Shown here one piece after another: positions 9,507 through 9,680 of a stretch of 64,000 nt of DNA (position 1 is its first letter; the number at the start of each line of letters is the position of its first letter). Source of the stretch: Dictyostelium discoideum (taxonomy: Eukaryota); NCBI GenBank assembly GCA_000004695.1, contig CM000155.2, forward strand, positions 2,080,001 to 2,144,000, in the 5' to 3' direction. The notes under the pieces are model-generated. The model saw nothing but the letters and a program-made list of their open reading frames with translations, searched no databases and had not been told where the DNA came from. Position numbers and translations under genes: made by a program.

Positions 9507-9680
9507 GGAGCTTCACCATCTGAAGCTGAAAAATTCATTTTTTATCAAAATTTAATTATCTTTTATCATATCCATCAATTACTCTCAATCCATTGTAATT
9601 GATGGACATGATAAAAGAATTTTCAATATTGATAAAAATATGAGGTTTTCAGCTTCAGATGGTGTATCTTCATAATTACC
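9507..9680. repeat. Long imperfect inverted repeat / foldback hairpin (arms about 70 bp, short spacer near 9591-9603)
   Basis: Left arm caccatctgaagctgaaaaattcattttttatcaaaatttaattatcttttatcatatccatcaattac. The right arm gtaattgatggacatgataaaag...ttttcagcttcagatggtg is its near reverse complement. The arm ends contain a smaller palindrome, cttcaccatctgaag. Confidence 0.7.

Follow-up and report, generated by a model that had tools for sequence, protein, structure and literature searches.

Introduction

Foldbacks with features in common with the locus analysed here are known from several settings. One is that of the intergenic miRNA precursors of Dictyostelium discoideum, for example ddi-mir-1183, ddi-mir-1186 and ddi-mir-1176/1177, and miRNA turnover in Amoebozoa is known to be fast. 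The published ddi-miRNA loci are 101–147 nt long and fold with −0.53 to −0.70 kcal/mol/nt, ddi-mir-1183 having a folding energy of −88.5 kcal/mol (PMC11014262). Conservation out to D. firmibasis is seen for mir-1177 alone (PMC11014262). A run of T followed by G has been reported at the start sites of D. discoideum pri-miRNAs, 14 in number, and of mRNAs (PMC6161686). Young miRNA and hairpin-RNA loci of plants, according to the proto-miRNA model, are extended near-perfect foldbacks which follow an inverted duplication, with arms that are copies of the future target gene. MITEs and foldback transposons are short, non-coding, AT-rich palindromes whose presence or absence differs between close species. 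In the D. discoideum genome the usual safe haven for mobile elements is the vicinity of tRNA genes. Finally, long palindromes with short spacers provoke deletion, a fragility recognised in yeast and mammals.

The locus described here is an imperfect hairpin in the spacer between a tRNA gene and a protein gene of D. discoideum strain AX4. It resembles the ddi-miRNA precursors in its long plant-like hairpin, its energy per nucleotide, its intergenic site, a T-rich tract and a lineage-specific distribution. It differs from them in its length (151–200 nt versus 101–147), in a very long stem, in showing no sign of selection on pairing and in its absence from the published miRNA lists searched. With the young plant loci it shares an extended foldback after inverted duplication, here decaying, whereas no source or target gene was found by searches of the window or with the arm peptides. 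It is a short, non-coding, AT-rich palindrome present in one of two close species and absent from the other, as a MITE might be, but unlike a MITE it has no further copies in the ~190 kb searched, no target-site duplication and no clean insertion boundaries. As in the quasi-palindromes of yeast and mammals, two inverted copies lie close together, here around a 12-nt spacer, with strong potential to form an intrastrand DNA hairpin and with asymmetric loss of an arm in one lineage. The AX4 hairpin is short and its arms are only 80–86% matched, placing it at the weak end of known fragility. The evidence set out below suggests that the feature is probably, though well short of certainly, a local inverted duplication confined to one lineage: an imperfect palindrome, with arms of ~95 bp and a 12-nt spacer, that is decaying neutrally.

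Genomic setting

The window, by which is meant the whole 64-kb stretch analysed, belongs to what we take to be chromosome 6 of D. discoideum AX4 (the 3.60-Mb contig being taken as that chromosome, and NC_007092 as its accession), and its genes run from DDB_G0292738 to DDB_G0292852. An intron-containing tRNA-Tyr(GTA) gene occupies 8994–9077 on the plus strand (Rfam, 57.8 bits). Downstream of it lie a T6 terminator and, at 9105–9118, a B-box-like sequence, GGTTCGATTCTTGG, which is presumably the external B box (ex-B) of a Dictyostelium tRNA gene. The hairpin lies ~430 bp downstream of the tRNA gene, as had been noted in a preliminary description of this DNA. On its other side, DDB_G0292800 as annotated in AX4 (175 aa) lies on the minus strand at 9930–10457, its stop codon (9930–9932) overlapping an AATAAA; a protein search with the last exon of this neighbouring gene returned AX4 DDB_G0292800 as its sole match. 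The hairpin thus lies 240–440 nt past the DDB_G0292800 stop, and the tRNA gene and the protein gene both have their 3′ ends towards the spacer that contains it.

Runs of T5–T6 are present on both strands of the hairpin, making Pol III read-through unlikely, so that any transcript would be expected to come from Pol II. A T-rich tract on the plus strand (9361–9465) has T at 22 of the 26 bases in 9437–9462, ends in G (9463, 9465) and stops ~40–50 nt upstream of the hairpin base. By its likeness to the motif reported at D. discoideum start sites, this tract may be considered a weak candidate for a transcription start. A scan for promoters and terminators of bacterial type, irrelevant in a eukaryote, picked up only the tRNA acceptor stem and the T-run.

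The same spacer contains a non-coding block (9159–9383) that is 79% conserved in the outgroup strain L011 (15854–16092) inside otherwise unalignable sequence, and for which no Rfam match was found. The block holds CCCATAA at 9319–9325, GCCATAA or ACCATAA in other strains, a motif similar to the upstream sequence element that Dictyostelium has at its small non-coding RNA genes.

Extent, structure and stability of the hairpin

A repeat finder run on 9300–9900 places the inverted repeat at ~9489–9689 (~200 bp, arms of ~95 bp each). The left arm (9489–9582) and the right arm (9595–9689) are separated by a 12-nt loop at 9583–9594, which reads TCTCAATCCATT in AX4 and CATCTATCCATT in the wild isolates L005 and L006. 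The repeat finder divides each arm into two parts. The outer pair (9489–9543 with 9635–9689) covers 55 nt at 80% complementarity, and the inner pair (9539–9582 with 9595–9638), collinear with it, covers 44 nt at 86%. The minimum free energy (MFE) structure has 72–76 pairs and ~15 mismatched or bulged positions. It includes a perfect 19-bp helix, CACCATCTGAAGCTGAAAA, formed by 9514–9532 and 9646–9664; this 19-mer has two exact matches in the 64-kb window, one per strand, where 0.04 would be expected by chance. Reading of the sequence also reveals a nested palindrome, AGCTTCA-CCATC-TGAAGCT, at 9509–9527 inside the left arm, the right-arm counterpart of which (9651–9669) is degenerate and agrees at 5 of 7 positions. 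The arms contain 26–28% GC, compared with 17% in the flanks and ~22–25% in the window overall.

The preliminary description had proposed computing the folding energy, and the RNA MFE proves to be −85.1 kcal/mol for the plus strand and −87.3 kcal/mol for the minus strand. Dinucleotide shuffles average −28.5 and −30.3 kcal/mol respectively (z = −15.3 and −13.2), and 0 of 200 shuffles fold as stably. As single-stranded DNA the hairpin has an MFE of −57.6 kcal/mol (z = −14). When the whole 64 kb was scanned with RNAfold in sliding windows of 200 nt, the two best values, −84.2 and −81.8, both fell on the hairpin, the next independent site reaching −54.2 against a mean of −26.7 (sd 9.7). The hairpin is an extreme outlier of fold stability in the 64-kb window. 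Other inverted repeats in the window, including that at 31068–31237, were rejected as comparable features, being pairs of low-complexity A-tracts and T-tracts.

The presence of a hairpin at this place, claimed from the letters alone, is therefore confirmed by two collinear arm pairs and an MFE far below that of the shuffles. The location given for it (9507–9680) was right, whilst the size of ~170 bp fell short of the true span of ~200 bp. The “handful of mismatches” ascribed to the arms was an understatement, and the small palindrome supposed to lie at each outer end is intact in the left arm only.

Comparison with other strains and a sister species

The orthologous locus was sought in five long-read assemblies through exact protein look-ups of neighbouring genes; these assemblies belong to the set of Holland et al. 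2025 (PMC12745789). The locus tree built from flanking coding DNA is ((AX4, L002), (L005, L006)) with L011 as outgroup, AX4 diverging from L005 and L006 by 2–3% and L005 from L006 by 0.5–0.8%. L002 (GCA_054883475) matches the window at 99.6% identity over the locus, and its hairpin does not differ from that of AX4. L006 (GCA_054859355) has both arms, with four differences from AX4 in the left arm and nine in the right, and despite these 13 differences its hairpin RNA (−91.2 and −91.5 kcal/mol) is at least as stable as that of AX4. L005 (GCA_054859385) keeps the left arm, the loop and ~12–13 nt of the right arm, the remainder being deleted. The cryptic sister species L011 (‘D. cf. discoideum’, GCA_054859205) is syntenic and retains the tRNA-Tyr gene, the 225-bp conserved block and the end of the protein gene, and its syntenic spacer was found to contain neither the hairpin nor any arm-like sequence. 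L004 is non-syntenic at this locus. The spacer is extremely rich in indels, and by our reading the excess of L006 over L011 is a block of ~480 bp, larger than the 200-bp repeat itself.

A separate observation concerns the NmrA-like gene of L011 (10001–10980, the orthologue of DDB_G0292738). It is split into two gene calls of 104 and 115 aa, and it is 13% diverged from AX4 as against 4% for the neighbouring gene. These features of the sequence suggest that the gene may be undergoing pseudogenisation in L011.

Evolution of the arms

For AX4 and L006, the left arms were aligned with the right arms in reverse complement. The two strains have in common the differences by which a left arm can be told from a right arm, for example GCTTCACC versus G..A.ACC, CATATTTTT with its one-base insertion, and TTTAATTATC versus TT.AA.ATTC. 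The duplication must therefore predate the AX4/L006 split, and the arms have not been homogenised by conversion; they were already ~8% mismatched in the common ancestor of the two strains.

In the RNAalifold consensus of AX4 and L006, 63–64 pairs are unchanged and two changes per strand are one-sided and preserve a wobble pair. No compensatory double change between the arms of the two strains was found in this consensus, which has two informative lineages. On inspection, the remaining differences disrupt pairing in one lineage or re-establish it in the other, in both directions, with about as many pairs broken as kept. The strand that gains from a G–U wobble varies from site to site, so that neither strand is favoured. 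Such a pattern is that of a long repeat decaying neutrally; two informative lineages give the test little power. Since the L006 hairpin is as stable as that of AX4 in spite of 13 differences, and the informative lineages number only two, the fold may yet be under weak selection.

Origin and possible function

Several accounts of the hairpin can be set against one another. One of them would deny that it is non-coding. In two of the strain annotations from 2025, those of L002 and L006, a right-arm stretch on the minus strand (9585–9671, ending in TPSEAENLIFLSILKILLSCPSITMD and a stop) serves as a terminal coding exon according to the gene ends, the open frames and a putative splice reconstruction. 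The neighbouring gene is extended through a long intron into the right arm and encodes 1363 and 1394 aa in these annotations, the models ending inside the loop, at window 9585 (L002 19514) or its L006 equivalent (L006 12306). If this exon were genuine, the left arm would be its inverted copy. The minus-strand frame is open in both AX4 and L006, and G/C in the arms avoids every third position, which would be the third codon position; this three-base periodicity (3/10/9) is suggestive but not significant (corrected p ~0.1) and was set aside as evidence of a coding origin. Against the exon, the AX4 protein DDB_G0292800 ends at 9930 with AATAAA on its stop codon, and the L005 and L011 models use this conventional stop, the exon sequence being absent from both strains. 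By our own count, AX4 and L006 differ by six non-synonymous changes and one synonymous change in 26 codons, and the implied intron (~315 nt in AX4, ~550 nt in L006) is long for D. discoideum. The arm peptides have no credible homologue: a word-indexed protein search returned nothing, and two bacterial repeat proteins from an exhaustive phmmer search (E = 8e-5 and 3e-4) were rejected because their scores were summed over repeated TGNY..DT/CDSIT motifs. When the 686-aa exon of the neighbouring gene was used as query, low-complexity words overwhelmed the protein search and no match emerged. A genuine terminal exon thus seems highly improbable, and the predicted one is probably a prediction artefact. 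The earlier statement that the hairpin contains no ORF agrees with how AX4 is annotated. Short open frames nevertheless run through the arms, and two newer annotations end a gene inside the hairpin, which may therefore serve as a caution for gene predictors. The insertion near the tRNA gene of a non-autonomous DNA transposon, either a MITE or a foldback element as the preliminary description had put forward, would account for a palindromic architecture of ~200 bp without coding capacity, for a GC content above that of the surrounding spacer, and for presence in D. discoideum sensu stricto with absence at the syntenic site of the cryptic sister species L011. It is also compatible with arms that were already imperfect in the AX4/L006 ancestor, and the tRNA-flanking region did receive another insertion, that of a TRE5-A-like element. 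Yet there is one copy in the 64-kb window and, in 126 kb from five other Dictyostelium assemblies, only the orthologous site (~190 kb in all); metagenome contigs hold no related sequence, the matches of the 21-mer TTCACCATCTGAAGCTGAAAA to four contigs of 38–54% GC lying inside bacterial ORFs (ATPase, subtilase-like) and being dismissed as chance. The flanks at ~9489 and ~9689 share only trivial A/T bases and no recognisable target-site duplication, and L011 offers no clean empty site, the differing block being ~480 bp long in a spacer full of other indels. The hairpin does not resemble either TRE5-A-like copy of the window, and its position 430 bp from the tRNA-Tyr gene does not fit the ~100 bp of downstream-targeting retroelements such as TRE3 and Skipper-2. 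The DNA transposons of D. discoideum have been reviewed as the Tdd, DDT and Thug families, with no mention of a MITE (PMC5633606). The single copy in ~190 kb, the lack of a duplication and the size of the differing block weaken the transposon reading, which we regard as quite improbable.

A young, lineage-specific miRNA or hairpin-siRNA gene is a more substantial proposition, albeit one which on balance we consider unlikely. A transcript starting at ~9463 on the plus strand, or running through on the minus strand, would fold into the hairpin, and DrnB/RbdB would cut it into 21-nt RNAs, the 19-bp helix being their likeliest source. For the hairpin core of 151–164 nt the folding energy is −0.46 to −0.52 kcal/mol/nt at 37 °C (at 22 °C, −0.60 to −0.66); in both length and energy it falls within or close to the span of known D. 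discoideum precursors. The miRBase high-confidence scheme, in the form used for D. discoideum (PMC6161686), asks for a precursor below −0.2 kcal/mol/nt with 60% or more of its duplex in pairs; the core lies well below that energy and offers a perfect 19-bp helix. The intergenic position is that of most ddi-miRNAs, a T-rich tract followed by G stands upstream (PMC6161686), and long near-perfect hairpins have been seen as a mark of newly evolved miRNAs (PMC11014262). Given that mir-1177 alone is conserved to D. firmibasis, absent conservation is no argument against such a gene. Rfam, searched at a permissive threshold, gave generic, sub-threshold miRNA-hairpin and snoRNA matches on the hairpin, the best being MIR476 with 33.3 bits against a gathering score of 80; no family exceeded its gathering score there, and the tRNA-Tyr gene alone passed. 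[quoted passage not shown] The string NC_007092 is likewise absent from the 2024 supplements, including their table of locus coordinates (PMC11014262), and a full-text literature search for arm k-mers found nothing relevant. Nor do substitutions show a bias towards keeping pairs or any compensatory change, and the wild isolate L005 is without most of the right arm. What had been proposed as a small-RNA precursor therefore has the structure of one, in size, energy and upstream T-rich tract, while a match to the published miRNAs searched and structure-preserving evolution are both wanting. One may consider a miRNA or hairpin-siRNA gene in the course of birth and death, made by inverted duplication within the D. 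discoideum lineage and transcribed from the promoter-like T-rich tract: AX4-type strains would process its RNA through DrnB, one tropical isolate would still have it whole, the sister strain of that isolate would have lost it by deletion of an arm, and the cryptic sister species would never have had it. This fuller scenario is distinctly unlikely. If true, it would provide a natural presence/absence series for the origin of small-RNA genes in Amoebozoa. More simply, should small RNAs be produced, the hairpin would be an unannotated miRNA or hairpin-RNA locus with natural alleles that are intact, diverged, deleted for one arm or absent.

The favoured explanation remains a local inverted duplication, which the preliminary description had listed among its candidates as a remnant: it is seen at one locus, its arms have evolved independently without compensation, and one arm has been deleted in an isolate. 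The palindrome would have had a single origin within the D. discoideum lineage, in a fast-evolving, indel-rich spacer between the tRNA-Tyr gene and the 3′ end of DDB_G0292800, most likely by fold-back or template switch during replication or repair. The arms would then have gained substitutions and small indels independently at an approximately neutral rate, and one wild lineage, represented by L005, appears to have deleted nearly the whole right arm, perhaps as a consequence of the palindrome itself. Searches of the window for a source gene or second copy (blastn-short, tblastn) yielded nothing beyond chance matches of 10–16 nt.

Some features sit less easily with this history. The GC-richer arms, in which G/C is scarce at every third position (a periodicity short of significance), hint that something other than ordinary spacer was duplicated. 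The ancestral arm mismatch of ~8% would fit an origin before the L011 split followed by loss in L011; it would also fit arrival as an already imperfect repeat, which would favour a mobile element.

Were Pol II to transcribe across the inverted duplication on either strand, the RNA would be expected to form an interrupted double-stranded stem of ~75 bp, a plausible substrate for the Dicer-like enzymes of Dictyostelium. To serve as a source of hairpin RNA, if transcribed, is its sole plausible activity, and the published miRNA supplements searched lend this no support. From its predicted fold, the locus is better regarded as material out of which a hairpin-RNA or miRNA locus could arise than as such a locus already established. 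If it is only a decaying palindrome it is of little importance, yet it would still be a datable example of how AT-rich Dictyostelium spacers gain and lose inverted duplications.

Other features of the window

A stretch of ~100 N at 13762–13860 marks an assembly gap inside a large minus-strand ORF, and it is probably owing to this gap that AX4 splits the region of the neighbouring gene into small models. Collinearity with GCA_054883475.1 (contig JBTAPE010000034.1) breaks exactly at the gap: the window to at least 10972 maps forward near 1.08–1.09 Mb of that contig, and 13861–30625 maps reversed at 1,005,111–988,392. The reference may be wrongly joined or oriented across the gap; otherwise the strains differ by an inversion of ~85–90 kb.

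The TRE5-A-like non-LTR retrotransposon lies on the minus strand at ~2700–8945, with ORFs at 6606–7874 and 3172–6393 (RVT_1). Its 5′ end is 49 bp upstream of the tRNA-Tyr gene and its 3′ end ~100 bp downstream of a tRNA-Leu gene (2530–2611); as it is absent here in L005, L006 and L011, it represents a strain-polymorphic insertion. At its 5′ end is a 199-bp tandem repeat (8052–8945), with a 69-aa ORF per unit, which looks like an A-module. The window has 4.5 copies, 99% identical, and GCA_054883475 has ~10.5 (L002 16787–18874), a difference due either to copy-number polymorphism or to assembly collapse. A second, partial TRE5-A-like copy at 38276–40467 is 97–98% identical to the first and ends ~39 bp upstream of a tRNA-Glu gene (40506–40578), the canonical upstream target distance. 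Between the two elements, 20927–31089 is a tandem array of four to five Peptidase_M66 paralogues of the dictomallein family, with 76–83% DNA identity, a member of which is Dictomallein-3 (DDB_G0292824, 23859–25652).
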